Of a stretch of 64,000 nt of DNA, positions 35,193 to 53,769 are shown piece after piece. Location: assembly GCA_963662545.2 (NCBI GenBank), contig CAXXLL010000002.1:640001-704000 (forward strand), in the 5' to 3' direction. Both the position numbers and the translations under genes were made by a program. The stretch is from Gammaproteobacteria bacterium. Lineage in GTDB: Bacteria > Pseudomonadota > Gammaproteobacteria > Ga0077536. The notes beneath the pieces are model-generated. The model worked only from the letters and a program-made list of their open reading frames with translations, had not been told where the DNA came from and did no database searches. Position 1 is the first letter of the stretch, and the number at the start of each line of letters is the position of its first letter.

Positions 35193-35255
35193 TCAGATCA
35201 GGACATAACTTGTAAGAACTCAGACTTGCTCTGACAGTTCCGCCACGCAAATTAA

Positions 35256-35403: not shown

Positions 35404-35727
35404 ATGCACAATTTGGTACAGTGTCTGTTGTTCATCGGTTTACTCAGCATCGGCACGGGCAAGGCCGTGCAGGCCGACGACCTGCGCGGTTTCGTTCTCG
35501 CCAGCTCCTGCGTAAGCTGTCACGGTGATGCTTCACCGAACGGTGCGGGTATCCCCGCCATCGTCGGAAGGGACGCCGCGTTTATCGCCGATGCACTGAA
35601 AAATTTTCGTTCAGGCGCGCGCGTATCGACCATCATGCAAAGGCTCGCGCGTGGTTACGACGACGCAGAAGTTGAACTTATTGCCGCATGGCTGGCCAAA
35701 ACTCAGTCCACAATTGTGAGACCCTGA
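35404..35727 (+). CDS. fccA: Flavocytochrome c, monoheme cytochrome subunit
   Basis: Signal peptide, CVSCH, STIMQRLARGY; abuts fccB. Confidence 0.85.
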   Translation: MHNLVQCLLFIGLLSIGTGKAVQADDLRGFVLASSCVSCHGDASPNGAGIPAIVGRDAAFIADALKNFRSGARVSTIMQRLARGYDDAEVELIAAWLAKTQSTIVRP

Positions 35728-36999
35728 ATGCAACGCCGTAATTTTCTCGGGCAATCGGCTGGGATAGCAGCGCTCGCCATGCTGACACCATGGCGAGCGA
35801 CCGCGACAACGTCTGCGCGGACGATCATTATTGGCGGTGGATTCGGCGGAGCGACCTGTGCGCGCTATCTGCGCTTACTCGATCCCGGCCTCGCCGTCAC
35901 ATTGATCGAAAGCGACGCCGCCTTCGTAACCTGCCCTTTCAGTAACCTCGTACTCGCAGGAATGCGCACCGTTGACGAAATCACGCATACGTACGCCCGA
36001 CTTCGAGCGTCCGCGATCACAGTGATTCACGATACAGCGACCGCAATTGATGCCGACAATCGTCGCGTAGCGCTCGCCAGTGGTAAGCAACTGGACTATG
36101 ACCGGCTCATCGTCGCCCCTGGGATCGCACTGAAGTTCGACGCTGTACCTGGCTACGACACGGCCGCGGCCGAGCTCATGCCGCATGCCTGGAAGGCTGG
36201 CGCACAGACATTATTGCTACGCCGGCAACTCGAGGCGATGAACGACGGAGGTGTGGTTGTGATTGCGGCGCCGGCCAATCCGTTCCGTTGCCCGCCCGGA
36301 CCTTATGAACGCGCCAGCTTGATTGCGCACTATCTGAAGCAGCACAAACCGAGATCCAAGATCCTGATTCTGGACACCAAAGACAAATTTTCAAAGCAGA
36401 GTCTGTTCCAGCAGGGTTGGAACGCGCTCTATCCGGGCATGATTGAATGGGTCGCCGGATCCGCCGGTGGGTTGGTTGAACGTGTGGAGGCCGCGTCGCG
36501 GACCCTGGTGACCGAGTCCGGTTTTACTGAACACCGCGCCGACGTGGTAAATTTCATCCCGCCGCAAGAGGCCGGGCAAATCGCGCAGCAAGCCGAACTC
36601 ACGGATGCTTCCGGTTGGTGCCCGGTTAATCAGCTCAGTTTCGAGTCGCTGCGTATTCCCGGTATACACGTTCTCGGTGATGCCGCGATAGCCGGTGCGA
36701 TGCCAAAATCAGGCTTTTCCGCCAACAGCCAGGCGAAAGTTTGTGCGGCTGCAATCGTCGCAGCATTGCGCGGTGACCCGATACCGGAAGCTTCCTACGC
36801 CAACACCTGTTATAGCCTTGTCGGCCCCGATTACGGAATCTCGGTCAGTGCGGTATATGCCCTTACTGATAGTGCCATCGCCGCCGTTAAGGGCGCCGGA
36901 GGATTAAGTCCGAGCGATGCCGATCCCGCGTTTCGCGCGCGCGAGGCGGCCTACGCTCGCGGTTGGTATTCCAGTATTACAGCCGATACCTGGGGCTAG
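35728..36999 (+). CDS. fccB: Flavocytochrome c sulfide dehydrogenase flavoprotein (FccB/SoxF)
   Basis: Tat RRNFL; GGGFGGAT, CPFSN, PFRCPPGPYER and NTCYS motifs. Confidence 0.92.
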   Translation: MQRRNFLGQSAGIAALAMLTPWRATATTSARTIIIGGGFGGATCARYLRLLDPGLAVTLIESDAAFVTCPFSNLVLAGMRTVDEITHTYARLRASAITVIHDTATAIDADNRRVALASGKQLDYDRLIVAPGIALKFDAVPGYDTAAAELMPHAWKAGAQTLLLRRQLEAMNDGGVVVIAAPANPFRCPPGPYERASLIAHYLKQHKPRSKILILDTKDKFSKQSLFQQGWNALYPGMIEWVAGSAGGLVERVEAASRTLVTESGFTEHRADVVNFIPPQEAGQIAQQAELTDASGWCPVNQLSFESLRIPGIHVLGDAAIAGAMPKSGFSANSQAKVCAAAIVAALRGDPIPEASYANTCYSLVGPDYGISVSAVYALTDSAIAAVKGAGGLSPSDADPAFRAREAAYARGWYSSITADTWG

Positions 37000-37037
37000 C
37001 CGACGCTCGACTGCGCCCTTCCTTCGCTGCCGCTGAT

Positions 37038-37303
37038 GGCCGCAATGGGTCCAGGCTGTCCGAAAACTAATTTCGATTTTGGAAAGTGGGGTATGCGTTA
37101 TCCAATTTGATCAATTTGCGCAGTGTGGTCCCTAATTTATCTGCTATGGGGACAACAAGTGGGGAAACTTTTCGTCGCGTAACGATTTTTCGGAGTTTTC
37201 GGACAGCCTGGGTCGTCAGCGGCCTCATCGCCGCGTTGCACCACTACTAAACGTTACGTCTGCAATCCTCTCAATAGCGGTCGTGCGGCAGTGTTCAGCG
37301 GCG
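37038..37303 (+). repeat. Tri-modular repeat R11 (3'-truncated, fused to ISCR tail) containing MITE-B
   Basis: GGTC at 37048 and 37211; module 2 present. Confidence 0.88.
37052..37210. mobile_element. MITE-B copy 2 (159 bp)
   Basis: IRs CAGGCTGTCCGAAAACT; GGTC TSD. Confidence 0.9.
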
Positions 37304-37771
37304 ACTGAAGACCTAACGCCTCTTGAACGCCGAGCAGCGATGAATTGGGCGCAGCGCCTGAAGCGGGTATTCAACATCGACGTCGAGACCTGCAATAGCT
37401 GTGGCGGGCAGGTCAAGATCATCGCGTGCATCGAGGATCCTGTGGTAATCGAGAAGATTCTCACCCATATCGAGCGCAAAGAAACTTCAACAGGCGCCTC
37501 GCGTTTGCCACCGTCTCGGGGGCCGCCGCAGGCCAGTTTGTTCGCCTAATACACGGACAACCGTGCGAGCAACACTGGCAGCTGCGATACCGACGAAGCG
37601 GCAGGGTCGCTGTCGAGCCGAGGGTCGAAGAGCCCAAAAATTAGCACCTAAGTGTGAGATTCTCCGGGCTCGGCCAGCCGACACCGCCTGCAAGCGCGCG
37701 TTGACGGCTGTGCGAGCACCTGCGGACACTCGATGAAGTTGCGGAAAAGGGCGTTTGTTCGTCTTATACGC
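37304..37771 (+). pseudogene. IS91/ISCR 3' remnant with oriIS-like end
   Basis: MNWAQRLKRVFNIDVETCNSCGG..IIACIEDP..RGPP; ends AAAAGGGCGTTTGTTCGTCTTATACGC. Confidence 0.88.
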
Positions 37772-37782
37772 TAATGTCCGCG

Positions 37783-39195
37783 CTATGATCTCACTGTCGG
37801 CTTGATGTTCTGGTTGAAGCGAAACATATTAGTGGGATCGTATTTATTCTTCAGCGCGACCAGGCGCTTATATTTCTCCGGTCCATAGGCAGCCATCACC
37901 CGATCGTCGCCTTCGTCGTCCTGCGGCCCCAGGTAATTGACATAAACCGAGTCCTCGTTGAACGGCGCCATGGCATCAAAGAAATCCCGTGTCCAGGCGA
38001 CGATCTGTTCATTGTTTGACGGGTCTGAGGTCATGCCCATGATCAATGAACTGTAACGGGCATCGCGGTGGTTGAAGGCGGTGTCATCCTTGCCGACACG
38101 TCGAACGCCGTTACCGACCTGCTCGATCATAAAGACCGATTCCGGCGTGGGGATCCTCGACACGAAATCGAGGATCACCTCGATAGTGTCGGCATTGAGT
38201 TTTTTCAGAAAATTGGACTTCCAATAATTCTGAAGTTTTTCTGGAAAAACTTCATCCGATGCTTGTTGATAGTCTACGTAGGTCGTTGGAACAATATCGT
38301 CGCTGATGGGCGAGCCGAACTCTCTCAGTGGTCGCAAGTACTTCTTACCCTCGTGTATGCCGCCGAAATAACAGACTTCAACCCCGAGCGCTAGTGGGCC
38401 ATCAGGTAATGTCGCGAACTGCACTAAGGAAACCAGATCATCGGGGGACGACTCGGTAAATTCGTCGTAAAACGTGAGCACGTCGCGGGCGGCGTCCAGC
38501 GGATGCCATATCACACCTCCTAGTACCTCACCTACCGGATGAACTTGATACTCAAACGACGTCACGACACCGAAATTTCCGCCGCCGCCGCGCAGTCCCC
38601 AAAACAGTTCTTCGTTTTGATCGGCGCTCACCGTCATCAGTCGCCCGTCGGCGGTGACGACATCAGCGGATAACAGGTTGTCACAAGCGAGTCCGTGTCG
38701 CCCGCCGAGCCAACCCCAGCCACCGCCCAAGGTCAATCCCGCTACGCCGGTACGTGATACAGCCCCGCCCGTACTGGCCAGGCCGAACGTCTGCGTCTCG
38801 CGATCGTAATCCTTCCAGGTTGCGCCACCCTCGGCTCTTGCGATGCGCGTCGCTACATCAACGTGAATACTTTTCATCAACGATAGATCGATCATCAAGC
38901 CGCCATCACACACGGCATTGCCCGAAACGTTGTGACCGCCGCCACGAATGGACACGCTAAGCACATTCGACCGCGCGAAGTTGACTGCTGCAATCACGTC
39001 CGAGACACCGGCGCATCGGACGATCAAATCCGGTCGGTGGTCAATCATTTCGTTCCATATCGTGCGGGCTTCGTCATACCCCGCATCGTGAGCTTGAAAG
39101 ACCGAACCGCGCAGGCCTATTTTGAATTCATCGATAATAGATTGATCGAGGCCCATACTATCCGAGCTATCACTGGCGGTATGTGTAACAGACAT
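37783..39195 (-). CDS. FAD-binding oxidoreductase, BBE/6-hydroxynicotine oxidase-like
   Basis: RGGGHN (covalent His), GGGGNFGVVT, YVNY and KYDPTNMFRFNQNI motifs. Confidence 0.92.
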   Translation of the reverse strand: MSVTHTASDSSDSMGLDQSIIDEFKIGLRGSVFQAHDAGYDEARTIWNEMIDHRPDLIVRCAGVSDVIAAVNFARSNVLSVSIRGGGHNVSGNAVCDGGLMIDLSLMKSIHVDVATRIARAEGGATWKDYDRETQTFGLASTGGAVSRTGVAGLTLGGGWGWLGGRHGLACDNLLSADVVTADGRLMTVSADQNEELFWGLRGGGGNFGVVTSFEYQVHPVGEVLGGVIWHPLDAARDVLTFYDEFTESSPDDLVSLVQFATLPDGPLALGVEVCYFGGIHEGKKYLRPLREFGSPISDDIVPTTYVDYQQASDEVFPEKLQNYWKSNFLKKLNADTIEVILDFVSRIPTPESVFMIEQVGNGVRRVGKDDTAFNHRDARYSSLIMGMTSDPSNNEQIVAWTRDFFDAMAPFNEDSVYVNYLGPQDDEGDDRVMAAYGPEKYKRLVALKNKYDPTNMFRFNQNIKPTVRS

Positions 39196-39591
39196 CTTGG
39201 TTCTCCCCTTCGCAATGACGACACTGCTTTGGAACCAATACTACGATGATTGAATCAAAAGTGCCCTTTCTACGCCGATTTTCGATCCGATTAAAAGATC
39301 AAAGGTTCGTTATCTTCCAAACGCAGTCATTGCCTGCTCAAACTATAGTTTGTTCGCGGTTGCGAGATTTAATTTCACTTGTTCTCTCATGATCGGACGA
39401 GAAAGCTTAATCGACGAAATCATGGAATTTCGCGACCATCATTGGCGCTGCAGGTCGAAGTGATTGTAAATTCGGCGTGCGCGCTTTACTTATAAGCTGT
39501 CGGCATTCATGCTGCAGAATAGTAAAATGAATCGTTCAGCGATGAATGCGAATGCGGCACTACAATAATCTTACAGTCAGAGGAAATAGCG

Positions 39592-40005
39592 ATGACTGAT
39601 AAATTTGGCGGCGCCTGCATGTGCGGCGCAGTGCGCTACAAGTGCAAATCCGAACCGGCTGCAACGGTCGTTTGTCATTGTCGGGATTGCCAGAAGCACA
39701 CGGGTAGCGCCTTTGCGACCGCGATGTTCTTTCTCAAAACCGACGTTGATATAACTGGCGAGCTAAAATCGTTTGATAAAAAAACGGATGCCGGCAACGT
39801 CATGACGAGAACGTTTTGCGGCATATGTGGTTCACATATTACGGAGTTTACGACTGGATTCCCCGAGCACGTCGTGGTGCATGCCGGGACGCTGGATGAT
39901 CCGACCCGGGTGAATCCCGATTCGCAGTGCTGGACGCCAAGAACCTTGCACTGGATCAACGACGTCGGCGGCTTGCACGGTTTCGAACAAGACCCGGAAT
40001 TTTAG
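39592..40005 (+). CDS. GFA/CENP-V family protein
   Basis: GACMCGAVRY, CHCRDCQ and FCGICGS motifs. Confidence 0.9.
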   Translation: MTDKFGGACMCGAVRYKCKSEPAATVVCHCRDCQKHTGSAFATAMFFLKTDVDITGELKSFDKKTDAGNVMTRTFCGICGSHITEFTTGFPEHVVVHAGTLDDPTRVNPDSQCWTPRTLHWINDVGGLHGFEQDPEF

Positions 40006-40085
40006 TCGCCCGATAGACGGAATTGATCAGCCATGTCGCGTGATACCTCGGCGATCGATACCGTCCAATTGCCTGGAAACCCGTT

Positions 40086-40847
40086 ATGAAAGAGCATGAA
40101 GAAGCCTATGCGATGCCATTGGCCGCACCGACCTTCACGCCGCCGCCGTTCTACGCAACACCCTACAGCCGCATTATCCTGATGGTCTACAAGGCGGACC
40201 CGGATGCGGTCGCCTGGGAGGTGCCGGAACCGCTCGAGATGGCAGAGGACGGCGTCATGCTGGCCTGGATCGGCGATATGGGCCAGCCGACTCACACTAT
40301 TGACGTTTATCACGAAGCGCTTACCGCGATTAAGGTGAAGTATCTACGATGGTCGGGCTGGTACATCAATTACATTTGGGTGGACCACGACATGGCGCTC
40401 ACTTTCGAGCGCGAAATATACGGCTGGCCGGCCAACCTGTGTGAATCGACGTCGCTGCAATTTCACGGCAGTCAAATTCTCGCGGACTGTGTACGTTATG
40501 GTGAGCAGTTGATGCGCATAAGTATGAACATCACCAGCCCACCGCCGCAGGGCCGCGAGACGCCGCTCGAGGATGAATTCGGGCGATTGGTTGGCGGGGA
40601 TTTTCTACAGATCCGAAAATTTCCGGCACCGGAGAAAGACGGCATTCCGATCAAGCAACTCCTGCTCATTCCATCGACCGATTTCAAGGTTCACGAAATC
40701 TGGTCGGGGCCTGCGGTGCTCGAACTCGGCAGCTCAGGACTTTACCCACACCTGCATAAACTGAATCCGATCGAAATCCTTGGAGCCTGGTACACGAAAT
40801 CCTCATGGATCGTGCCGTATCCTGAAATTCTTTGGGAGAACAAATAG
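40086..40847 (+). CDS. Acetoacetate decarboxylase family protein
   Basis: AYAMPL, VPEPLE, YHEA and REIYGWP motifs; the catalytic Lys position appears substituted (PAN). Confidence 0.75.
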   Translation: MKEHEEAYAMPLAAPTFTPPPFYATPYSRIILMVYKADPDAVAWEVPEPLEMAEDGVMLAWIGDMGQPTHTIDVYHEALTAIKVKYLRWSGWYINYIWVDHDMALTFEREIYGWPANLCESTSLQFHGSQILADCVRYGEQLMRISMNITSPPPQGRETPLEDEFGRLVGGDFLQIRKFPAPEKDGIPIKQLLLIPSTDFKVHEIWSGPAVLELGSSGLYPHLHKLNPIEILGAWYTKSSWIVPYPEILWENK

Positions 40848-41105
40848 GAGCGGGAGGCTCCAGGTCCTACCTGCCTTTGGTGATGAGCGCTGTTCTGTTT
40901 TGCGCCGGCGTGGCTATTGAGCCCTTCGAGACATGAGATGCTACGTAACGCGAATGATTTTAACGCCTTTTATAACTCCCTCTTCCTGTGTGACCGTGGC
41001 TCGGGCATTGCGACATAGGTAAAGACATAGAAACTCCAAGATGCGAAGGCATTGTTGGCGGAGTGGGAGTAAAGAAGCCGCATTCTCCGAGGTCTGCAAA
41101 GGGTC

Positions 41106-42789
41106 CAGGCTGTCCATAAACTCACTTTGCGGAGCACTTGACGGCTCATCCGGGCTGTTTGGTAGCGGCGTCATCACGATGCGCTGATTCTGCGCGTCCA
41201 ACAGCGTTTGAGAAACTCGACGCCAAAGTGGCGAAGGACATTCGCCGCCGCGGTCTATCCAACACCCGGAGGATGTTTCGGGAAAAAGGCGGGTTCCTAT
41301 GACTGTATCGCTTCTATGAGTGGCGCAACCCCGAGTATCGCCATCGCCCGTTTCATGTTGTACGCCAGCACGTGCAAACTCATCTCCGTACCCACGTTCT
41401 TCAGCGTTTTCATTTGGAAGTGTGTCGACCCCATCCAGGATTTCAACGTGCCGAAGGGATGTTCGACGGTCTGTCGTCGAACGCGCATGCGCGCGGGCTC
41501 TTTGTCCAACCTTGCTTCAACCGCTTCGAGCACGGCTTCGTGCTCCCAGCGGCTGACGCGTCGTTCTTTCCCCGTCGTGCACTTGCCTTTGAGCGCACAT
41601 GAACCACACGTCGATGCCCAGTAACGGTAGATTGTTAATCCGTCTTGGTGTGTTTCCGTGCGGCGCGTCAGTCGCTCTCCCGCCGGACATTCGTATTCGT
41701 CATCATCGGGCTTATAAATGAAATCCCGTTTGCCGAAGAGGCCCTTCGCCAGATTGCCCGAGGTCTGGGGTTTCGGCAGATAAGTCGTGACCCCCGCTTC
41801 ATCACACGCCAGGCTCTCCTCGCTCCTGTAGTAACCCCGGTCCGCGACAACCTCCAGGTGCTCAACACCGAGTGCTTCCTTCGCTTGCTTTGCCATGGCG
41901 GCGAGCGCCGCTCGGTCATGACCCACGTTCGTCACCTCGTGCGTCACGATCATATGATGTTTAGCGTCAACCGCCGCCTGTACGTTGTAGCCCACCATCC
42001 CCGTACCGCGCCCGCTGGTCGCCATCGAGCGGGCGTCTGGATCAGTCAGTGAGATCTGTTGGCCCGGTGCCTCAAGCATCCGGGCTTCCAACTTTTTTAG
42101 GCGCGCCATCTCCTCTTTCAGTCGGCTGATTTTATCCGCCAGTCGCTCCGTTTTGTCCTTCGCAACCGCTGCTTCCTGACGGTCAGCACTCGCCATCTGA
42201 CCCAGATACCGCTCAATGCTCTCGTCAATCTGCGCCAACCGACGCTTCAGCTTCGCCTTGGTGAAGTTCCGCTCCCGGTTGTTCACCGCCTTGAACTTGC
42301 TGCCATCAATCGCTACAAATGCCTCCGAGAATAATTCCAGCTTCCGGCACAGCATCACAAACTCCCGGCACACCAGACGAATGGCGACACCGTTGTCCTT
42401 CCTGAAATCCGCGATGGTTCTAAAGTCAGGCGCTAAGCGACCCGTCAGCCACATCAACTCCACATTGCGCTGCGCTTCACGCGCCAGCCGTCGCGATGAC
42501 TGAACTCGATTCAGGTAGCCGTATACGTAAAGTTTTAAAAGGGTTCTCGGATCGAAGCCCGGCCGACCCGCGGCCTTGGCCTCCGACTGGAAACCTAGAC
42601 CGGAAATATCCAGCTCGTCGATGAATACATCAATCACGCGCACCGCACTGTCTTCGCCGATGTAATCATCCAGTCGCTCTGGAAACAGCGTCGCTTGGTA
42701 GCGATCTTCGCCTTCAATGAATCCACTCATCAGACGATTCCTTGCGCGAAAGGTCGATTATAGATTCATGGGAGTTTTCGGACAGCCTG
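41106..42789 (-). mobile_element. IS1182-family element
   Basis: IRs CAGGCTGTCCATAAACTC / GAGTTTTCGGACAGCCTG; GGTC TSD. Confidence 0.92.
41297..42730 (-). CDS. IS1182 transposase
   Basis: SSRRLAREA, AIDGSKF, ADRGY and VEHPFGTLK motifs. Confidence 0.93.
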   Translation of the reverse strand: MSGFIEGEDRYQATLFPERLDDYIGEDSAVRVIDVFIDELDISGLGFQSEAKAAGRPGFDPRTLLKLYVYGYLNRVQSSRRLAREAQRNVELMWLTGRLAPDFRTIADFRKDNGVAIRLVCREFVMLCRKLELFSEAFVAIDGSKFKAVNNRERNFTKAKLKRRLAQIDESIERYLGQMASADRQEAAVAKDKTERLADKISRLKEEMARLKKLEARMLEAPGQQISLTDPDARSMATSGRGTGMVGYNVQAAVDAKHHMIVTHEVTNVGHDRAALAAMAKQAKEALGVEHLEVVADRGYYRSEESLACDEAGVTTYLPKPQTSGNLAKGLFGKRDFIYKPDDDEYECPAGERLTRRTETHQDGLTIYRYWASTCGSCALKGKCTTGKERRVSRWEHEAVLEAVEARLDKEPARMRVRRQTVEHPFGTLKSWMGSTHFQMKTLKNVGTEMSLHVLAYNMKRAMAILGVAPLIEAIQS

Positions 42790-43011
42790 GGTCGTAAGCC
42801 GCCCGCTCGCGGCAGTGCAGCACTGCTAGAGGTTAGGTCTGGGATACCCTCGTAAGCGGCCATTCCCTTCTCATAAAAAGCATCGCAGCGCTTGACTTCG
42901 GCTCGCGGCTAAGAGCGGTCCCGAATATAAACGGTGTTCGTCGAGAATTGCTATGCTTACAGAACTGCCCTCGGGTGAACATCCAATAAGACGATGTCGG
43001 GAGATCGGACC

Positions 43012-44877
43012 ATGAGAAATCTGCACCTGTTACCCCTGTTTGGATCCCTGTTCGCGTCGCTCGCTGCGTACGCTGAACCCGCAGCCGAAAAGTCGAAGGG
43101 ACTGGACGGCGCCGCACTGTACGCCGAACACTGTATCGAATGCCACGGGCGCGCCGCAATTTCCCCATCGTTGACGGCATTATCGAACATGACCGCCGAG
43201 GAAATTCACAAGGAACTGTGGTTCGGCGTCATGGCACAGTTTGTCAATGGCATGGACGATGCGAAGCGATGGACGATAGCCAAGTGGATCGCCGACCATA
43301 AACCCGAAAAGGGCACGCGCGGTGCCGGCGTGACCATGTGCAAAGACAAGACGCCGCTGGTACCCGATGCGGAGCATGACTGGCCTGGACTGTCGAACGA
43401 CAACCGCTACAACCGGCATGTGACTAATGCGCAGCTCACCGCTGCGGGGTTAGCGAACCTCAAGGTCAAGTGGGCCGTAGCCTTCCCGCAGGTCCACGCG
43501 TACCAGGGTGGTGGGCACCCGGTCGCCGTCGTCGGTGACCGATTGTTCGTAGGTAATCTCAATCAATGGGTCTACTCGCTCGATGCGGACACCGGGTGTG
43601 CCCACTGGGCGTTTCGTGCGGAATGGCGGATCCGATCGAACATCGCGGTGTCCGACGGTATCGCCGTGTTTGGCGATCTGGGGGCCAACGTCTACGCTGT
43701 AGATGCGGAAACGGGCCAATTGCTGTGGCGCGACCGGGCGGATTGGACGCCGACCTCACGCATTACGGGCAACGTGACGGCGCACGACGGCATGGTTTAC
43801 GTGCCCGTGTCCTCCTTCCAAGAAGTGCTCAATATTGGCAAACATAGGGAATACCCGTGCTGTACGTTTCGCGGCAGCATCGTCGCCTATGACCTGCGTA
43901 CCGGTGAGCGCAAGTGGAAGTCCTACACCATCGACAAGGAATTCGGGTATCTGGGCACGACGAAAGCCGGCACGAATCGCTACGGTCCCTCGGGGGTCGT
44001 GGTGTTCTCGGCCGTCACGGTCGACGACAAGCGCGGCCTGCTTTACGTGCCAACCGGCAACCAGATGACTGAGCCGGTCGTGCGCGAATCCGACGCCATG
44101 TTGGCGTTGGACATGAAAACCGGCGCCAAGCGCTGGGTGACTTCACTGGCACCCGAGCAGATGGGCGGCCAGGACATCTACCACCTGGGCTGCGAAAAGT
44201 GGGTGGATCCCGAACAGAAAACCTGTTCGCCCTTAAACCCGACGGGACATGGTGACCGGGATATCGTGTCGCCCGCGGTGCTGGTGGAACGATCGGACGG
44301 TAAGGAGATCATCGTGACCGGATCCAAGGACGGCATGCTTTACGGCCTGGATCCGGATGACAGCGGCAAAGTCCTGTGGCAGATCCGCCTCGGCGCCGGC
44401 GGAGAGCTCGGCGGCATCCAATGGGGATTCTCGAGCGACGGCATAAATGCCTACGTACCCGTCATCGATATGGATGTGGACATGAAGGCGAACGGGTCCT
44501 TCACGGCGGTCGATCTCCTGACCGGTAAATCCATCTGGCGTATACAGGATATGACGCCTGATTGTGAAGGTAAGACGTCACCCCCGTGCAGCAACGCCTT
44601 CAGCTTGCCCAGTACCGTGGCGGGCGACGTCGTTTTCACGGGCACCGGCGACGGCGTACTGCGCGCTTACGATACCGCGACCGGCAAGCCGGTGTGGACG
44701 TTCGATACCGTGCGCGAATATGAAACGGTTAACGGCCGCAAAGGGTTCGGTGGGGGGCTCGGCTCGTTCGGGGGGCCCGTCATCGTGAAAAACCGGTTAT
44801 ACGTTTCATCCGGCATGGATCAGTTCAATATTGGGCTGCCCGGAAACGTACTGATCGCGTTCGAGATCCCCGAATAA
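43012..44877 (+). CDS. PQQ-dependent quinohemoprotein, polyvinyl-alcohol dehydrogenase-like
   Basis: Signal peptide, CIECH heme, PQQ beta-propeller repeats, YPCCTFRGS, GGIQWG, PGNVLIAF. Confidence 0.85.
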   Translation: MRNLHLLPLFGSLFASLAAYAEPAAEKSKGLDGAALYAEHCIECHGRAAISPSLTALSNMTAEEIHKELWFGVMAQFVNGMDDAKRWTIAKWIADHKPEKGTRGAGVTMCKDKTPLVPDAEHDWPGLSNDNRYNRHVTNAQLTAAGLANLKVKWAVAFPQVHAYQGGGHPVAVVGDRLFVGNLNQWVYSLDADTGCAHWAFRAEWRIRSNIAVSDGIAVFGDLGANVYAVDAETGQLLWRDRADWTPTSRITGNVTAHDGMVYVPVSSFQEVLNIGKHREYPCCTFRGSIVAYDLRTGERKWKSYTIDKEFGYLGTTKAGTNRYGPSGVVVFSAVTVDDKRGLLYVPTGNQMTEPVVRESDAMLALDMKTGAKRWVTSLAPEQMGGQDIYHLGCEKWVDPEQKTCSPLNPTGHGDRDIVSPAVLVERSDGKEIIVTGSKDGMLYGLDPDDSGKVLWQIRLGAGGELGGIQWGFSSDGINAYVPVIDMDVDMKANGSFTAVDLLTGKSIWRIQDMTPDCEGKTSPPCSNAFSLPSTVAGDVVFTGTGDGVLRAYDTATGKPVWTFDTVREYETVNGRKGFGGGLGSFGGPVIVKNRLYVSSGMDQFNIGLPGNVLIAFEIPE

Positions 44878-44884
44878 GGGTACC

Positions 44885-45028
44885 GTGACGGCGATTAGAT
44901 CGGAGGACGTTATTCAAAGCGTGGCGGACGCGTTGCAATACATCTCGTATTACCATCCGCCCGACTACATCGCCAACCTCGCGCGCGCCTACGAGCTCGA
45001 AGAGTCGCAGGCCGGCGTGGCCGCTTAG
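44885..45028 (+). pseudogene. fumA: N-terminal fragment of class I fumarate hydratase, cut at repeat R13
   Basis: IQSVADALQYISYYHPPDYI...AYELEES, then runs into the repeat. Confidence 0.8.
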
Positions 45029-45149
45029 GGTCGTCGGCGGCCTCCTCGCGGCACTGCAGCACTGTTTTAGATTGCGTCTGCTATTCCCTCCATAGCGGTC
45101 GTCCAATAGCGTTCAGCGGAACGTTTACAGAGCACTTCAGCTTACAGCC
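45019..45149 (+). repeat. Tri-modular repeat R13
   Basis: GGGTC 45028, AGCC 45146. Confidence 0.9.
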
Positions 45150-45362
45150 GAGGCTTTTCTTGCAACGCTCGACATTCCGATCTCGGCACCGAGCCTAGGC
45201 GGACCCGAAACGTTGGTGACGTGCCCTGCCATCACTTCGCACGCGGGACTGTCGATAGCAGCGCGCGAACGCCTAGGTGTCAGCAACGCTTTGATCCGCT
45301 GCTCGACGGGTTTGGAGGACGCTGATGAGCTGATTGCTGATTTCGCCCAAGCCCTCGGTTGA
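45147..45362 (+). pseudogene. C-terminal fragment of a Cys/Met trans-sulfuration PLP enzyme, starting at repeat R13
   Basis: APSLGGPETLV..PAITSHAGLS...LIRCSTGLEDADELIADFAQAL*. Confidence 0.8.
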
Positions 45363-45443
45363 TACCCGTGTATCATCCGGGTTCAAGGAACTTTCGGCCG
45401 CACGCCCATGTCCGGATGTATTGCGGCGATAGTGGAAAACTCC

Positions 45444-46943
45444 ATGAATCATTTTGATGTCGTCATCGTCGGCGCAGGCCTGTCGGGCATCGGCGCGGCT
45501 CGTCAATTGCAGGACAAATGTCCCGGCAAGACGTTCGCGATTCTGGAAGGGCGTGAAACGATCGGCGGCACCTGGGATCTGTTTCGTTACCCCGGTGTCC
45601 GTTCGGACAGTGATATGTATACGATGGGATACGACTCTAAGCCCTGGCTCAACCCCAAAGCGATTGCTGACGGACCGTCAATTTTGGACTACGTGAAGGA
45701 GGCCGCCACGGAGCGCGCCATCGTCGAGCACATCCACTTTGGTCATAAGGCCCGCGCGGCCAACTGGTCGAGCGAGCAATCCCGCTGGACCATCGAAGCC
45801 AAGCGCACGAATGGCGGCTTGGCTCAGTTCACCTGTAATTTTCTGTTTATGTGCAGTGGCTACTACAGCTACGATGAAGGTTACACCCCCGAGTTCGACG
45901 GCATAGACGATTTTAAGGGCCAGATCATCCATCCTCAGAAATGGCCGGACGACCTCGACTATGCCGGCAAGCGCGTGGTGATCATCGGCAGCGGCGCGAC
46001 CGCGATGACGCTGGTCCCGGCCATGGCCGAGACAGCCGGTCAGGTCACGATGCTGCAGCGTTCGCCGACTTACGTGGTGTCGCTCCCGGCCGAAGACGCA
46101 ATCGCCGAAACGCTCAAGAAGTATCTGCCGGAGAAGCTCGCGTATCGCATCATCCGCCGGAAGAACGTGCAGTTTCAGCGCTACATCTACCGCCAAACGC
46201 GAGTGAATCCCGAGAAGTTCAAGCAGAAACTCTTGAGTCTGGTGCGTAAGCACCTCGGGTCCGACTACGATATCAACAAGCACTTCACGCCTGATTACAA
46301 CCCCTGGGATCAGCGTCTTTGTCTCGTGCCGGATGCCGACTTGTTCAAGGCGATAAATTCCGGCAAAGCGGCGGTGGCGACCGATCAAATCGAACGCTTT
46401 ACGCCTACCGGAATTCAGCTCAAGTCCGGAGGCGAACTCGAAGCCGACATCATCGTTACCGCGACGGGTCTCAACCTCGTCGTACTGGGCGACGCGACCT
46501 TCAGTGTCGACGGCAAACCCATTGATTTCCCGCAGACCTACTCCTACAAAGGTTTGATGTTTTCGGATGTACCCAACCTCGTGTACACCCTAGGCTATAT
46601 CAATGCGTCCTGGACTTTACGCTCGGAATTGGTGGCGGAATATGTATGCCGGCTGGTGAATCGCATGACTGAGTTGAATGCCAGCCAGTGCACCCCGCGC
46701 TTGCGCGAAGAAGATGAAGGCATGGAGCGGCGATTGATGGTCGAGGATTTCACCCCGGGCTACATGCAGCGGACCATGCATCTATTTCCGAGGCAAGGTG
46801 ATCGCGACCCCTGGCGCTTCACGCAAAATTATGCGGCCGACAAGAAGAAAATCCGTCACGCGCCGCTGGAAGATGGGGTCTTGAACTTCAGTCGAAATCG
46901 TCCGCCTGAGTTTTCAGAGATCAAAGGGGCCGTTAACGAATGA
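45444..46943 (+). CDS. Baeyer-Villiger monooxygenase (EthA-like)
   Basis: GAGLSG, GGTWDLFRYPG, FKGQIIHPQKWP BVMO fingerprint, GSGATA. Confidence 0.92.
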   Translation: MNHFDVVIVGAGLSGIGAARQLQDKCPGKTFAILEGRETIGGTWDLFRYPGVRSDSDMYTMGYDSKPWLNPKAIADGPSILDYVKEAATERAIVEHIHFGHKARAANWSSEQSRWTIEAKRTNGGLAQFTCNFLFMCSGYYSYDEGYTPEFDGIDDFKGQIIHPQKWPDDLDYAGKRVVIIGSGATAMTLVPAMAETAGQVTMLQRSPTYVVSLPAEDAIAETLKKYLPEKLAYRIIRRKNVQFQRYIYRQTRVNPEKFKQKLLSLVRKHLGSDYDINKHFTPDYNPWDQRLCLVPDADLFKAINSGKAAVATDQIERFTPTGIQLKSGGELEADIIVTATGLNLVVLGDATFSVDGKPIDFPQTYSYKGLMFSDVPNLVYTLGYINASWTLRSELVAEYVCRLVNRMTELNASQCTPRLREEDEGMERRLMVEDFTPGYMQRTMHLFPRQGDRDPWRFTQNYAADKKKIRHAPLEDGVLNFSRNRPPEFSEIKGAVNE

Positions 46944-47162
46944 TAGGTTTAATAATTCTCCGTTGTCACCTAACCCTCTAATTCACCTTGGCTTAGCCGA
47001 ATCTTCGCTTTCTCGCCATTTCTGCCGCACCGTTCCACCTACCCTTGAAGACCGCTCCGCATTTTTCGATAAACACAGTCATGCCTTTTTTCTGGTCCTC
47101 GGTAGAAAACGCCAGGGCCACCGCTCCAGTCGGAGAAGGAAGCAAGGTAATCTACCGTCGAT

Positions 47163-48993
47163 GTCCGCTGTGGGTCCAGAGTGTGTGAAAACTCTGCATC
47201 AGATAAGATCACTCTTTCGGTCCTGGGGAGTCGTTGATGAGCGGGTTCATTGAAGGCGCGGACCGCCGCCAAACAACGCTGTTTCCCGAGTGTCTGGACG
47301 ATTATGTCGCTGAGGAGAGTGCGGTGCGGGTCATCGATGTGTTCGTCGATGAGTTGGATCTGTCAGGTCTGAGTTTCAGAACCGATGCGCATGAGACGGG
47401 TCGACCGGGGTATCACCCGGCGACGATGCTGAAGCTCTATATCTACGGTTACCTGAACCGGGTTCAATCGAGCCGTCGCCTGGAACGGGAGGCGCAGCGG
47501 AACGTGGAACTGATGTGGCTGACGGGTCGTCTGGCGCCTGATTTCAAGACCATTGCCGATTTCCGCAAAGATAACGGTGACGCCATTCGTCTGGTATGCC
47601 GGGAGTTCGTGATGCTGTGCCGTAAGCTGCAGCTGTTTTCGGAAGCCTTCGTGGCGATAGATGGCAGCAAGTTCAAAGCGGTAAACAACCGTGACCGGAA
47701 CTTCACGAAGGCGAAGCTGAAACGTCGGTTGCAGCAGATTGACGAGAGCGTTGAGCGGTACCTGGCGGAAATTGCAAGTGCCGACCGCCAGGAGCGTGCG
47801 GTGTCAGGTGACAAGTCGCAGCGTTTGAAGGACAAGATCGAGGTACTGAAGGAAGAGATAGGCCGCCTAAAAAAGCTCGAGGTACGGCTCGAGGAGACGC
47901 CGGACCATCAGGTCTCACTGACGGACCCGGACGCGCGCTCGATGGCGACGAGCGGCCGTGGCAGCGGCATGGTGGGGTACAACGTGCAGACGGCGGTCGA
48001 CACGAAGAGTCATCTGATTGTGGCACATGAAGTGACGAACGTAGGTCATGACCGGGCGCAACTGTCGAACATGTCGGAGAAAGCCAAAGAGGCGCTGGAT
48101 AAGAAGGAGTTGACCGTCGTTGCGGATCGCGGGTACTTCAGTGGCGAAGAGATCTTGGCGTGCGCTAAAGCCGGCATCACGACCTATCTGCCGAAACCGC
48201 AGACCTCGGGTAACCAGGCGAAGGGCTTGTTTGGCAAGCGCGACTTCATTTACCAACCCGAAGAGGATGCGTATGAATGCCCGGCCGGTGAGCGACTGAT
48301 TTACCGGTTCACCCGAGTGGAGAAAGGCAAGCAGATCCGGCGCTACTGGAGTTCGGCGTGTCCCCGCTGCCCGATCAAATCTAAATGCACAACGGGTCGA
48401 TACCGGCGCGTCAGCCGTTGGGAACATGAAGCGGTTGTTGAAGCGGTGCAGGCGCGATTGGATCGTGAACCTGACCCTATGCGTGTCCGCCGAGAGACGG
48501 TCGAGCATCCATTTGGCACGATCAAATCCTGGATGGGTTCGACCCACTTCCAGATGCGCACGCTGAAACACGTTGGTACGGAAATGAGTCTGCACGTGCT
48601 CGCTTACAACATGAAACGCGTGATGAATCTACTGGGTGTCGCTACGCTCATCGAAGCGATGACGGCATGAGACCCTCTGTGGCCTCGAAAACTCCCTGAT
48701 CCACGGCTTCACTGCCGGCTTCTGGGGCCGTTCTAAGGAATGTTCCATTAACTAACCGATCGCATTGGACCGCGAGCGCGGCCGTCGTAACCGCGCCGCG
48801 TTGCGTCTGACGAGGAGTTCTCGACGTGATTCCTCTTCATTCCGAGTTTTCACACACTCTGGGTCGGTAGCTGCCTGATCACCGCGGCGCAACGCTGCTC
48901 TAGTTTACGTCTACAATGCGCTCGGAAGCGGTCATCGAGTTGCTTTAAGCGTTAAGTCGAGAGGGTACGACGGCTCTCGGCCAAGTGTGGGCC
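47163..48993 (+). repeat. Tri-modular repeat R14 split by IS1182 (47163-47176 + 48862-48993)
   Basis: GGTC duplicated; GGCC 48979. Confidence 0.88.
47177..48861 (+). mobile_element. IS1182-family element (1685 bp), copy 1
   Basis: IRs CAGAGTGTGTGAAAACTC; GGTC TSD; CDS 47237-48670. Confidence 0.93.
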
Positions 48994-49133
48994 CGAACAG
49001 CACGCACGCCTCGATCATTCATCGGCAAGTTGCTATACCGCAGCGCTGACTTGAAAGCGGCTATTTAATGGGGATAGCAAAAGCTGGCGGATATTGGTAA
49101 ACGTATCCGATAGCGCGACGGGGGAAAGAGGCC

Positions 49134-49763
49134 ATGTACATTCCCAAGGCACATCAAATTTCGGATAGAGCGATACTTGATGAGTTCATCACGATGAACG
49201 GTTTTGCGACGCTCATCAGCACCGTGGACGGCTCCCCCTTTGCGACCCATCTGCCGATGATCCTCGATCGGACTGAGTCGGCGCAGGGAGTTCTCCTGGG
49301 GCATGTCGCGCGCGCTAATCCTCACTGGCGCGCGTTCGACGGCCAGAGGGAGGCGCTCGCGATTTTCCACGGCCCTCATACCTACATTTCCCCTAGTTGG
49401 TGTGTGACCCCCCTCGCTCTACCCACCTGGAACTATGCGGTGGTGCACGTATACGGCGCTCCTCGTGTCGTCGATGAGGAAGAATGGCGCTCCAACCTGG
49501 TGGACAGACTGATTGCCATCCACGAAGCGGGCATGCCTGAACCGTGGCCAGGGGAGTTTCCCGCCGACTTCAAAGCCAATCTCTTGCAAGCGATCGTGGG
49601 GTTTGTCATAGAAATCGAGCGAGTGGAGGGCAAGTTTAAACTGGCTCAGAACCGCCCGCTTGAGGACCAGCTGGGGATTGTGCGTCACCTTGAAGCAAGC
49701 CGTGACCCTGTAGCCCAGGCATTGGGAGCACTCACGAAGAAACAGCTCAGCGCCACGGATTGA
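49134..49763 (+). CDS. paiB: FMN-binding negative transcriptional regulator PaiB family
   Basis: MYIP, GHVARANPHW, YISPSW, PTWNY and GKFKLAQN motifs. Confidence 0.9.
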   Translation: MYIPKAHQISDRAILDEFITMNGFATLISTVDGSPFATHLPMILDRTESAQGVLLGHVARANPHWRAFDGQREALAIFHGPHTYISPSWCVTPLALPTWNYAVVHVYGAPRVVDEEEWRSNLVDRLIAIHEAGMPEPWPGEFPADFKANLLQAIVGFVIEIERVEGKFKLAQNRPLEDQLGIVRHLEASRDPVAQALGALTKKQLSATD

Positions 49764-49877
49764 TTGATCGAGCACGAAGAGCCTGAAATGAACCCAGAAG
49801 TTATTGCGAGGGTGGAGACTAGCCAAAAAAAAACGCCTTAGTACGAGGTTTTTATTTTTGCAACCAGGTCCGCTATG

Positions 49878-51121
49878 TGGTTTGGCCCCGGTATTTCGGA
49901 CCACCTAATTCGGCACGATAATGTGCTGGGAGGTGTGTCATGGGGAGAAGACAACGCTATAGCGCGGAGTTCAAAAGACAAGCACTTAGGCGAGCTGACG
50001 AGCCCGGGGTGACGGGTGCTCTGGTGTGCGAGGAGCTTGGGATCAGTACGCGACAGCTTCGGCGGTGGCAGGATTTGGTAAGTGAGCACGGGGAGAAGGC
50101 TGCGTTCCCAGGCCACGGCAAGAGCCGCGACGAGGAGATGACGCGACTCAAGCGCGAACTGAGCAAGGTCACAGAGGAGCGTGATTTTTTAAAAGAAGCG
50201 GCGAGGTACTTTGCCAGGGAGTCGAAGTGAGATACGGCTGTATCCACCGGCGGCGGCGCCAGCACTCGGTCAGGATGATGTGCGGGTTGTTGCGTGTCTC
50301 GCGTAGCGGTTACTACGACTGGTGCGGTCGTGGCGAGAGTGCGAGACAGCGCCGGGACCGGCGTCTGTTACCCCTGATCCGAGGCCTGCACCTGGAGAGT
50401 GGCGGTGTCTACGGCGCACGCAAGGTGCAACGCGAACTGGCCGAGCTCGGTGAGCCTTGCGGACGGCACAAAGTGGCCCGCTTGATACACGATGCCGGAC
50501 TCAAAGGTTGTCCGAAGCGCCGATTTCGCCGGCTTGCTGAGCGCCCGCCGAGCTACCCGGTTGCAGCGAACTTGCTCAACCAGGACTTCAAGGCCAGCCG
50601 GGTCAACGCGCGCTGGGCGTCGGATATTACCTACCTCTCGACACGCCAGGGATGGCTGTACCTGGCGGTAGTGATGGACCTCTATTCGCGACGCATTGTG
50701 GGCTGGTCGATGGACCGGCGGACCGGCCGACACCGGGTGGTGGACGCGATGAAGATGGCGCTGGGGCAACGTCAGCCGAGCGCCCCGTTGCTCCATCATT
50801 CCGACCGTGGACCGCAATACACCAGCGATGACTTCCGAGCGCTACTGGCGCGTTACGGGATCGAATGCAGTATGAGTGGTCGTGGTAGTTGTTACGACAA
50901 TGCACCGGTCGAAAGCTTTTTCGCGCTACTCAAGCGCGAGCGCATTCGCCGACGCACTTACGCTTCTCGAGAGGACGCCAAGGCTGATGTGTTCGACTAC
51001 ATCGAGCGTTTCTACAACCGATGTCGGCGTCATGGCTACCTGGACTATTCCAGTCCGGTAGACTTTGAAAGGCAGGCAGTGAAGACTTAATCAACTGGTC
51101 CGAAATTCTGGGGCCGAACCA
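49878..51121 (+). mobile_element. IS3-family element (orfA 49940-50230, orfB 50227-51090) between the outer arms of repeat R15
   Basis: TG...CA IRs; WASDITY, HHSDRGPQY and ESFF motifs; flanks GTCCGCTATG and GTCGGCCATAAGCGGCCAT; no TSD. Confidence 0.92.
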
Positions 51122-51327
51122 GTCGGCCATAAGCGGCCATCCGAGTCGCCTGGCTAACTCAATTTTGATGGCTGGAGCGAGCCATATTCCTGACGACCGC
51201 CCCAAAAAAATACTGCGCGCAGGTATTCGAGCCATGCCCGCTCCGACACCTTATATATATGTGCCCTTAATCGCTGTACTGGTGGGCTGTTCTACGCCCT
51301 ACCAGAAGAAGGGTTTTTCCGGCGGAT

Positions 51328-51573
51328 AGCATATTGGCGCACAGTCCAAGGCCGCCCCACGTACTTGGTCGCGCGTGGCCCGCGCACAAAGGGCTCGAAT
51401 CCCGGCATCGAATCGACGTGTTCCAACTCGGCCAGGTCGGCCGCCGTATAAACGGGTTTAACGACGATTCCCTCCGCCGTCAGCCAGTCAAGCGCGTCTG
51501 GCGAGGCCGCCTTTGACTCCTTTAGCGCCCGCGCGCTTCAATCAGATAGGGCTTTTTCAGAACCTGTTGTCAC
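51328..51573 (-). pseudogene. scpA: N-terminal fragment of methylmalonyl-CoA mutase
   Basis: VKPVYTAADL...MPGFEPFVRGPRATKYVGRPWTVRQYA; internal stop and frameshift. Confidence 0.75.
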
Positions 51574-51835
51574 TCGAGAACCTCCGGAATATACGGCGAT
51601 CCGGGCGCCTATACCCCGCCTGCGGTGCGGGCGTCTGGGAGCCGCGAATTATAGCCCGCGATCCGTCTAGACGCACGTAAGGTTCTGCATTACAGGACTT
51701 TTCCGGTGCCTACAGATCGTTTACGGAAGGCCCGCGGGACCTAACTCGTTATACTGGACGGGCCCGCGTCGGGCACGTCACCGCCCGGTGAGCCGCACGT
51801 AATAGCAATCAAAGACGAAATCCCCTAAACACATC

Positions 51836-53050
51836 ATGGATTTCTCACTTTCAGCCGATCAAATCGAGCTCCAGAGTCACTGCCGCGAACTCGCGCGCAC
51901 GTTTGCTGAGACGTCCGACCGGCATGATCGCGAAGCATCCGCGCCGGAAGAGAATTACCGTGCGCTACGTGAAGCCGGCCTGTTCGGGATGCTAACGCCC
52001 AAGAACTTGGGCGGGATGGGCGCCGGCCTGCTCGGACACACGATCGCGATGGAAGAACTCGCCCAGGGCTGCGCCGCGACAGCGATGAGCTTCAACATGC
52101 ATAACGTGGCCGCTTATACGCTAACGGTAACCGACGCATTCGGCGACGCCGTACGCGAACGCGCTGCACAACTGTTTGTCGTCGAACGCAAGTTAATGGC
52201 GAATCTCATTTCGGAGGCCGGCACGACCAATCTTTTGTACTCGACGCGCGCAAGTTCGACCCAGGCGCGACGGGTAGATGGCGGTTATCTGTTAAACGGC
52301 CGCAAGGCTTTCGCTTCTATGATCTCCTCGGCCGACATGGCGTTGATTTGCGTGCATCCGGAACATATCGAGAACCTCGAATCGGTGATCATGGTAATCG
52401 TCGATACCGACGCGCCCGGTCTCACGATCGAACCGGTGTGGGATACGCTGGGTATGCGAGCAACCCGCAGTGACAACGTTTTGCTCGAAGATTGCTTCGT
52501 ACCGGCGGAATTTGCCTTCGATCATGTCGTTGTTCCCAGCATCGGCGAATTCCTGGCGACTCATGAATCGATGATCAACCTGCCCTATACCGCCGTTTAC
52601 ATGGGCCTTGGGCTCGCAACGCTGGCCGCGATCAAAGCCGTTGTAAAGGGACGGCGACCCAAGGGTTACACCCAACCGCTGTCTTATCACCCCGATATCC
52701 GGCGGCGCATAGCCATCATCAACGCAGAACTCGAGAGCGCGCGTTGGCTGTTGCGCTACGCGGCCTGGCTCGCCGACAACGAAGGCCAAACGCCGGCCGC
52801 GCAGACGGCGTTGTTCCGCGCGAAATACGTCGTTGGCGAGGCCGTAGCCGCGGCAACGCGATCGGCACTCGAAATGGGCGGCGCGCATGGGTTGTTCAAA
52901 GGCTCGGCGATAGAACGTTTGTTTCGCGACGGCGCCACCGCCACAATGATGCAACCCAGCACCGACGTTTGTCTGGGCCAGATCAGCCTCGATGAATTAG
53001 ACCTCGAGCAAACGCAGGTCCAATCTCCGTTGGCCCGTTCCGACGACTGA
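51836..53050 (+). CDS. Acyl-CoA dehydrogenase family protein
   Basis: MDFSLS, LNGRKAFAS, WDTLGMRATRS and IERLFRD motifs. Confidence 0.9.
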   Translation: MDFSLSADQIELQSHCRELARTFAETSDRHDREASAPEENYRALREAGLFGMLTPKNLGGMGAGLLGHTIAMEELAQGCAATAMSFNMHNVAAYTLTVTDAFGDAVRERAAQLFVVERKLMANLISEAGTTNLLYSTRASSTQARRVDGGYLLNGRKAFASMISSADMALICVHPEHIENLESVIMVIVDTDAPGLTIEPVWDTLGMRATRSDNVLLEDCFVPAEFAFDHVVVPSIGEFLATHESMINLPYTAVYMGLGLATLAAIKAVVKGRRPKGYTQPLSYHPDIRRRIAIINAELESARWLLRYAAWLADNEGQTPAAQTALFRAKYVVGEAVAAATRSALEMGGAHGLFKGSAIERLFRDGATATMMQPSTDVCLGQISLDELDLEQTQVQSPLARSDD

Positions 53051-53313
53051 CGCAGTATGCCGCGTCACCACTCGCGGTTCGGGTGATGATCGCAACCCTA
53101 TAATCGAGTTCTTACCCGGTTATCTCGCCGTACTAATTGGATCCCGCCTTTTCCAACTGCACGGATTCCTGAAGCGTTGTCGTGAATTCGAACGAGGGCG
53201 GGGTCTTCGATGCAGGCGATGACTGTAGAGCACCGCACCTGCGTATGGCTTTTGGATCTATTTTCACAGTCGGGTTGTGCTGGAAGTAAGCGTTCTAAAC
53301 CTGGAACTCCGAG

Positions 53314-53456
53314 GACCACTTTGGGTCGTCAGCGGCCGAATCGCGGCAGCGGATCACCGCCCTAGATTACGTCTGCAGTGCGCTCCATAGCAGTCGTCGA
53401 GTAACGTTCACCGACGCGTTAACCGATGACGACGGCAGTCGGCCAATAACCGATAT
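53314..53456 (+). repeat. Tri-modular repeat R16 (uninterrupted)
   Basis: Modules start at 53314, 53371 and 53431; GGGTC 53323, GGCC 53441. Confidence 0.92.
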
Positions 53457-53769
53457 ATCCCGAATCTGCTACCAGTCAAGCGAATAATTAAATTCGCCCA
53501 ATATCCTGGCACTGAGTGACTAAAATGGTGGCGCTGAGAAAAAATATTACGTGCTAATGCCCGGCTTTAAAATCGGCGGTTGGGGCCCATAATTGTAGTT
53601 GGGTACAAAAAGAAGAGAGGAAATTTAGCAAGTGCCAGTGCCGCCATCAGGATTGAAGTTGGCTTTACTAATTGACCATATAATGGAACCGGATAAAAAC
53701 TGGTTTATCGCGCCAGAAGGTCATTTCTGGTATTGGGTGCCAGCTGACTCTGCACTCTTTCCCCTTTTC

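Follow-up and report, generated by a model that had tools for sequence, protein, structure and literature searches.

The consensus for integron attC sites holds inverted core sites, R'' (RYYYAAC) on the 5' side and R' (GTTRRRY) on the 3' side. Mobile elements that target attC sites include the IS1111-attC group and the group IIC-attC introns. In the part of the integron literature on which we draw here, attC sites are described by their R and L boxes, and clusters of attC sites that lack an integrase are termed CALIN (PMC4889954). Among the architectures described in that text, CALIN is the nearest to the locus reported here (PMC4889954), an array of co-oriented repeat units with genes between them, one of which, R13, sits between fragments of two unrelated housekeeping genes. 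No published description of such an array was found in a full-text literature search.

We analysed 64,000 nucleotides of DNA; the window, below, means this whole stretch. A unit profile built from window and MAG copies (nhmmer) found exactly 16 units, all on the + strand and spread over 47 kb, and none in 1-15784; repeat search alone counted 14-16 copies in this family, from 15.8 to 63.1 kb. The array measures at least 48 kb. The units that matter most for what follows are these:

15785..63131, + strand: array of 16 co-oriented ~148-nt units, reaching to the right window end or beyond (nhmmer; repeat families D1 and D2)
41088..42925, + strand: unit R42801, next before R13, interrupted at 41105-42790 by a type-A IS1182-family element of 1686 bp
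45017..45149, + strand: repeat unit R13 (R45040), left arm and middle complete, right arm cut after AGCC (nhmmer, alignments)
47160..48997, + strand: unit R48873, next after R13, interrupted at 47176-48862 by a type-A-like IS1182-family element

With insertions removed, the unit is a discrete ~148 nt bounded by two imperfect inverted arms of ~27 nt, each made up of an outer box (ATGTCCGC), a short spacer and an inner box (GGGTCG or CGGCC). The left arm reads ATGTCCGC, a 3-nt spacer and GGGTCGtcAGCgGCC; it is followed by a conserved middle, ACGTCTGCAAT.C.CTC..AAGCGGTCGT, then by a variable stretch, and finally by the right arm, CGGCTCTCGGCC, aaca and GCGGACAT. The same two ends recur in 16 window copies and in seven further copies on four MAG contigs. 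Copies are mutually 60-91% identical over 77-125 nt, and some are mosaics of one another (37047-37301 matches 55265-55519 at 91%). We considered that the unit might be the 3' end of a gene, read in a minus-strand frame ending ...ERYWTTAYERIADVI*, and dropped the idea since in-frame stops occur in most copies and the residue changes with the variable codon. Rfam returned no match, either for the whole window at the gathering threshold or for 14.2-15.8 kb at E<=1.

Most cassettes consist of whole genes, in either direction, with intergenic spacers next to the units; the genes are large, and some cassettes hold two or three of them. GFA-family genes (glutathione-dependent formaldehyde-activating-like) recur as cargo, at 19069-19569 (-) and 39592-40005 (+) in the window and at 1075-1533 of the MAG locus L003; the one window/MAG pair compared is 31% identical. 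An MscS-like ORF of 171 aa (62392-62907, +), which covers the first 37 of 68 beta-domain positions and ends ~90 nt before R63021, is probably truncated at its C terminus. Two further regularities concern the DNA next to the units. A 43-nt sequence (GCCGACGCTCGACTGCGCCCTTCCTTCG...) lies directly left of three of them (36999-37041, 57726-57768 and 62960-63002), and these units therefore form a subfamily with a common extended left flank. In addition, a terminator-like stem with a T-run, oriented for a minus-strand gene, stands ~5-25 nt from the right end of four units; the stems were located by alignment:

24126-24190 and 32321-32360 of the window: terminator-like stems
~1880-1925 of L002 and ~2800-2875 of L003: terminator-like stems

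The array shares several features with CALIN and sedentary chromosomal integrons as the available text portrays them: numerous sites of ~150 nt in one orientation, akin to one another yet diverged, with no adjacent integrase, sites that are more alike within an array, and insertion sequences that colonise it (PMC4889954). A CALIN is recognised by at least two clustered, co-oriented sites with cassettes between them, and here every one of the 16 window units is on the + strand. In contrast to CALIN, the units have neither attC polarity nor an attC hairpin, their middle is conserved, and the genes between them are large, run in either direction and sometimes come in twos or threes. The polarity of the attC boxes is absent, the arms reading ...tttGGGTCG... 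on the left and ...CGGCCaac... on the right with no conserved AAC...GTT pair. Hairpin folding fails as well: ten single-strand DNA folds (five units, both strands) gave z values of +0.28 to -1.39 against shuffles, and the consensus fold of 15 unit copies had 12 pairs and not one compensatory change. Judged by their sequence and folding, the units are very probably not integron attC sites, in agreement with the original prediction that this arrangement differs from tidy single-ORF integron cassettes. An intI gene or remnant was likewise not seen, there being no tyrosine-recombinase domain in the scanned window ORFs, and the array continues past the right window end. The Pfam scan, which included 11 ORFs of 14.1-15.6 kb left of the array, revealed no tyrosine or serine recombinase domain in any of the ORFs covered, and no transposase able to act on the units was found in the window. 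Xer/dif (pdif) modules differ as well, being flanked by 28-bp XerC/XerD sites in alternating orientation where the units here are ~148 nt and all in direct orientation.

It could still be argued that the units belong to an unusual lineage of attC sites and that the R13 junction is a fused or damaged cassette. Co-oriented sites between cassettes with no integrase nearby are what the CALIN text leads one to expect (PMC4889954), fused cassettes with partial loss of attC are on record in the portion of the cassette literature that bears on this (PMC4670013), each arm has two boxes and a short spacer, and the ISs that target the units recall the attC-targeting elements. Nevertheless, the inner boxes read TTGG...CCAA and not ...AAC...GTT... 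whichever strand is taken, the single-strand folds are no better than shuffles, compensatory pairs are lacking, and the cassette genes face both directions. We regard this explanation as very improbable.

When 185,579 species genomes were searched for a two-block pattern of 22 bases, which matches nine of the 16 window copies, six loci came back. Five were confirmed by the unit profile, on four MAG contigs; the remaining one, L007, was a chance pattern match with no profile match and was set aside. The contigs are binned to Pseudomonadota, Poribacteria and Chloroflexota, with two of the loci (L004 and L005) overlapping on a single contig; these short contigs could be mis-binned. Their units keep one orientation per contig and stand 0.9-1.9 kb apart (2, 2 and 2-3 units per contig), with single-gene cassettes between them that encode an alpha/beta hydrolase, a GFA protein, a YbaK-like protein, a pilin and a pair of overlapping small ORFs. 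Cargo common to the window and the MAG loci was looked for by blastn, and none was found except the units themselves and a block upstream of the array that is described below; the other two window/MAG protein pairs compared were unrelated or weakly related. The unit had no match in a plasmid collection. In L003, a reverse-transcriptase ORF (362-934, +) that matches RVT_1 positions 1-87 of 205 stops where the unit at 921-1065 (-) has its right end.

With five true loci among 185,579 species genomes, the units are rare and clustered, not dispersed, and this rarity, clustering and co-orientation therefore argue against an ordinary dispersed MITE. The corresponding account of R13 would have one MITE-like copy insert into fumA, followed by recombination or deletion, involving two copies or the DNA beside one, that brought in the fragment of the second gene, the "array" being native chromosome sprinkled with MITEs. 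Small size (~148 nt), ~27-nt imperfect terminal inverted repeats and TG...CA-like termini do suit a MITE, as do the precise left joint inside a gene and the mosaic structure of the units. Against these stand the single orientation of 16/16 window copies and of those on each MAG contig, where a MITE would be dispersed in both orientations; the lack of a consistent target-site duplication at unit ends in the alignments inspected; the absence of copies from the first 15.8 kb of the window; the handful of loci elsewhere; and the lack, in the window, of a partner element that has these ends. We consider this account unlikely.

Ten of the 16 units carry an IS or MITE insertion at fixed unit points. 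The insertions belong to two related IS1182-family types, each with ~160-bp gene-less derivatives (MITEs). The family assignment is based on the Pfam domains DUF772 and DDE_Tnp_1 and on plasmid relatives annotated as IS1182 family; the plasmid collection gave two matches to the ISs, both of that family. Type-B elements have the ends GAGGCTGTGTCAAAAGT. The mobile elements of the window are as follows:

23837-23997, 37051-37211, 41105-42790, 47176-48862, 55269-55429 and 60320-62006: type A, in the left inner box of six units
15918-18995, 21253-21411, 32144-32303 and 34221-34379: type B, each flanked on either side by GGCC, at the GGCC of the right arm in four units
17573-18766, - strand: IS256/Mutator-type transposase gene, split in two, nested in the type-B element of the first unit
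19882-20961, + strand: ISL3-type transposase gene
3-1007, + strand: IS1595-type transposase gene at the left window edge
25705-26676, 28796-29524, ~21510-21700 and 30250-30672, - strand: four IS91-like Y2-transposase fragments, none complete

Two pairs of IS segments are 100% identical: 47163-47462 and 60307-60606, which belong to two copies of one IS1182-family element, and 28414-28713 and 50798-51097, which are two IS3-family ends, one from a truncated copy. These pairs suggest recent IS activity in the array. Insertion at one fixed place in an array repeat is also how the attC-targeting elements behave, and it affects 10/16 units here; unlike those elements, the ones in this array are IS1182-family DDE elements and ~160-bp MITEs, of two types, one for each unit arm.

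The Y2 fragments bring to mind ISCR/IS91 rolling-circle capture, in which unrelated gene pieces lie beside a repeated end. All four adjoin just three units (R21143, R25630 and R30679), copy 1 is frameshifted near ...MTWAQR, one piece runs into the right end of R25630 (25756), and another is cut by the left end of R30679 (30654). A complete Y2 (HUH) transposase beside captured DNA was looked for and only fragments were present in the window; among 20 ORFs of the four MAG loci, Pfam gave no Y2 match. The array thus departs from ISCR/IS91 capture in having Y2 pieces beside just three units, one of them itself cut by a unit end. We do not take the unit for the natural end of the IS91-like element, given that the Y2 pieces meet units at differing points and that one is cut by the left end of a unit.

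Against this background, two housekeeping gene fragments meet at R13. The genes and fragments on either side of it are:

42994..44877, + strand: intact quinohaemoprotein dehydrogenase (PQQ beta-propeller plus cytochrome c), PVA-dehydrogenase-like, 627 aa; cargo left of R13 (Pfam PQQ, PQQ_2, Cytochrome_CBB3)
44885..45013, + strand: fumA', the first 43 codons of a class I fumarate hydratase (protein search and tblastn)
45147..45362, + strand: PLP', the last 71 codons and stop of a Cys/Met-metabolism PLP enzyme (tblastn, Pfam, PDB)
45408..46943, + strand: intact Baeyer-Villiger-type flavin monooxygenase (BVMO), 511 aa; cargo right of R13 (Pfam FMO-like, Pyr_redox)

As the original prediction had it, each fragment lies beside an intact cargo gene. 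The 627-aa dehydrogenase is covered at 98-100% by homologues of 621-636 aa, the best of which shows 96% identity across 99% of the query; in some sources these homologues are called polyvinyl alcohol dehydrogenase (cytochrome). Its stop codon lies 7 nt upstream of the start of fumA'. The 511-aa monooxygenase, also whole, contains GGTWDLFRYPG and FKGQIIHPQKWP, the latter of which we take to be a fingerprint, and begins 45 nt after the stop of PLP'. For 42.7-47.2 kb, the plasmid collection yielded one 140-nt match, to the BVMO gene, on a Burkholderia replicon and with no PLP neighbour. Each flank of R13 is contiguous DNA of ordinary chromosomal type, a whole gene plus part of its neighbour.

The N terminus of a class I fumarase was proposed to run directly into R13, and it does, 43 codons ending 3 nt before 45017. 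P0110 and P0111, two class I fumarate hydratases of 508 aa, begin with the same 43 residues (100% identity); in tblastn, residues 1-43 of P0110 fall on 44885-45013, with 97.7% identity and not 100% because the window copy opens with GTG. Beyond A43, the window continues with G-V-A-A-stop and the references with A-R-D-A-M. The protein search with fumA' returned 6004 proteins at E<=0.001. Matches to Pfam (Fumerase, profile positions 2-35, E=0.0048) and NCBIfam (PRK06246, positions 1-44, E=0.028) are weak alone, and a PDB search with the piece gave no useful match. Since the N terminus is very conserved within the clade (75-100% identity among 120 proteins listed, of the 6004), perfect identity says little about the age of the break. 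Homology to fumA ends at 45013 and the conserved TG of R13 begins at 45017, a gap of 3 nt, so that the break coincides with the natural end of the unit to within 3 nt. The rest of fumA was not found in the window (tblastn of P0110), and neither was the missing front of the PLP gene (tblastn of P0002); the original layout therefore cannot be rebuilt from the window.

A process acting at the unit end is needed for this joint; it could have been insertion of a unit, or of a unit plus cassette, into fumA, or else a step in cassette formation. Alternatively, the left junction could mark where a deletion ended or be left over from cassette formation.

The right side of R13 is built differently. The unit is complete on its left side, where the arm reads TGGCCGC tta GGGTCG..., and lacks its right tip, the outer box whose consensus is aacaGCGGACAT. 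The C-terminal codons of the PLP enzyme, about 71 of them, were said to begin at the AGCC of the repeat core, which is borne out: tblastn of the 381-aa P0002 aligns residues 311-381 at 45147-45359 with 87% identity (62/71), the alignment starting exactly at 45147. This position is inside the AGCC of the unit (45146-45149), in its last GCC. Pfam agrees (Cys_Met_Meta_PP, PF01053, profile positions 311-380 of 381, E=5e-18), as do trans-sulfuration enzymes in the PDB (E down to 5e-14) and NCBIfam, and the three residues upstream of 45147 bear no likeness to the PLP homologues. The right junction lies inside R13, at GGCC, and the last ~13 nt of the unit, its outer box, are gone. The same GGCC is the insertion point of type-B IS1182-family elements in four other units. 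The profile match of R13 (45018-45152, +, E=2.5e-34) covers profile positions 4-138 of 145; the end at position 138 is common to R13 and three type-B-interrupted units (R15808, R21143 and R34112), with R32034 ending at 137. Nine other units end at 140-144, and two with no type-B element, R63021 (136) and R37222 (137), are also short.

The junction itself is marked by a short word:

45147..45155, + strand: junction 9-mer GCCGAGGCT, made up of the GCC that closes the unit and the opening 6 nt of the terminal repeat of type-B ISs

It occurs eight times in the window, against 0.91 expected. Seven of these mark places where a unit meets a type-B IS; the eighth, at R13, also encodes A311-E-A of the PLP enzyme. 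This inner position, at the GGCC that the ISs use, together with a 9-mer proper to unit/IS joints, points to a secondary deletion at the right junction rather than to a captured piece ligated there, and from the sequence we read it as a short-homology deletion and not as a capture event. The 9-mer match could instead be due to chance, GAGGCT also being simply PLP coding sequence (A-E-A). That a 6-nt match to the IS end should fall by chance at exactly the junction of R13 is, however, unlikely.

The original prediction took the cargo to be raw chromosomal pieces, captured with bits of their neighbours and ligated at the repeat, and proposed mapping the breakpoints. The part that concerns the flanks stands, both being contiguous DNA with partial neighbour genes, and both breakpoints do fall within a few bases of repeat landmarks. 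They are not equivalent, however, one being the natural end of the unit and the other an internal GGCC, and the right joint looks like a deletion. For both junctions to be primary, with chromosomal pieces cut out and joined at the repeat, truncated border genes would have to be a signature of cassette formation. The left joint, precise at the unit end, agrees with such a process, as do the Y2 pieces that abut R25630 on its right and R30679 on its left and the reverse-transcriptase gene cut at a unit in L003; moreover, if GGCC were the crossover point, the start of PLP' there would be a secondary-site event. On the other side, R13 alone is without a right outer box, and its junction 9-mer is that of a unit/IS joint. 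Truncated housekeeping genes also do not form a general pattern of the array: stop-to-stop ORFs within 160 nt of units were taken (125 listed, of which 18 already annotated or at R13 were left out), and among the resulting 107 flank ORFs at the other 15 units Pfam (E<=0.05) identified no further one, a negative that is weak because Pfam misses short pieces. Most cassettes are, as noted, whole genes with spacers. Capture at both junctions seems to us rather unlikely. The truncated mobile-element genes at unit ends (25756, 30654 and L003) fit it too, and to that extent count against the explanation that we prefer.

The junction also resembles certain products of integron recombination, within what the source texts cover. 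Like fused integron cassettes, R13 is a recombination site minus part of itself joined to foreign coding sequence (PMC4670013), and like the products of integrase acting at secondary sites, where cassettes can land inside genes outside att sites (10.1101/2022.09.11.507474, PMC4670013), its left end lies within a gene. It is unlike fused cassettes in that its loss falls at an IS target, with a 9-nt match to the unit/IS joint, and in that no integrase is known for the units. A more trivial origin, two loci joined by the assembler through a common repeat, would put the junction at a repeat, where it is. Copies that are 60-91% identical are nevertheless too diverged to collapse easily, the sequence of R13 is its own throughout, and a chimera would leave unexplained the loss of exactly the right tip at the IS target; we think an assembly chimera most improbable.

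The explanation that we favour, while holding it somewhat short of an even chance, is that R13 records the insertion of a unit end into fumA and a later short-homology deletion, within a cassette array that is not an integron. The fragments, the breakpoints, the anatomy of the units, the IS target sites and the 9-mer counts are directly observed; we infer the order of events, the mechanism of deletion and a role for the units as recombination sites. In a first step, the process that installs units would have acted at a non-canonical place, inside fumA directly after the PVA-dehydrogenase-like gene; most likely this would be site-specific recombination by an enzyme encoded outside the window, and its outcome would be the precise joint of fumA codon 43 to the natural left end of the unit. 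The second step would begin with a type-B IS1182-family element or MITE in the GGCC of R13, as in four other units. A RecA-independent short-homology deletion would then have joined the unit/IS joint (GCC|GAGGCT) to the identical 9-mer in a downstream PLP gene, at the cost of the IS, the right tip of the unit, any DNA in between and the first 310 PLP codons. The original layout would thus have had a whole PLP gene, with the BVMO gene, downstream in the same array. This explanation requires a type-B element that is now absent from R13, and it has against it that the window yielded no recombinase or transposase suited to the units and that no circular or empty-site form was seen.

The non-integron array is a more unusual feature than the R13 junction. 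A conserved block lies to its left:

14813..15066, + strand: conserved block upstream of the first unit, with a tiny hydrophobic ORF and unit-like boxes (blastn, alignment)

Situated about 720 nt left of the first unit, the block is 78% identical over 253 nt to L004/L005 (L005 95-352), at one end of the Chloroflexota-binned contig. Its tiny hydrophobic ORF ends ...MFVLIANALTMVGVGEALWPEGGKEK* and has been kept with synonymous changes; a stretch of >90% identity that contains the unit-like boxes ACGTCCGC ... GACGGCTTTCGGC follows, and the similarity stops directly after a module-3-like CGGC (a GGCC-like motif). The layout differs between the two loci, the block lying right of two units, in unit orientation, on the Chloroflexota-binned contig and left of the units in the window. 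It may be the primary site of the array ("unit 0") or a small toxin-like locus. The plasmid collection contained no match to it. The small ORFs beside the block in the window and in L005 were compared as possible homologues and proved unrelated, and MAFFT gave no support to the idea that the odd left arm of R34112 is a hybrid with "unit 0".

These features would be consistent with an undescribed cassette platform, with ~148-nt double-stranded sites, inverted arms of two boxes each, a recombinase encoded elsewhere, a start at "unit 0" and exchange at the right-arm GGCC, although we hold this to be doubtful. If it were true, the fumA' joint would preserve, like a fossil, the attachment of a unit to raw chromosomal DNA, so that the birth of a cassette would be seen directly, and PLP' would have been joined on by an exchange with a secondary site, at the crossover point.

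The question bears on how gene cassettes are made. Cassette systems would form a wider class if they included separators that are not attC sites but act like them; the units here are co-oriented and clustered, occur on contigs binned to several uncultured lineages and have site-specific IS parasites of their own. The precise joint at codon 43 of a conserved fumarase gene is a dated trace, of a rare kind, left where a unit met ordinary chromosomal DNA. Should R13 be just a deletion scar, it would still show cleanly how arrays of this sort are eroded by the ISs that target their units.
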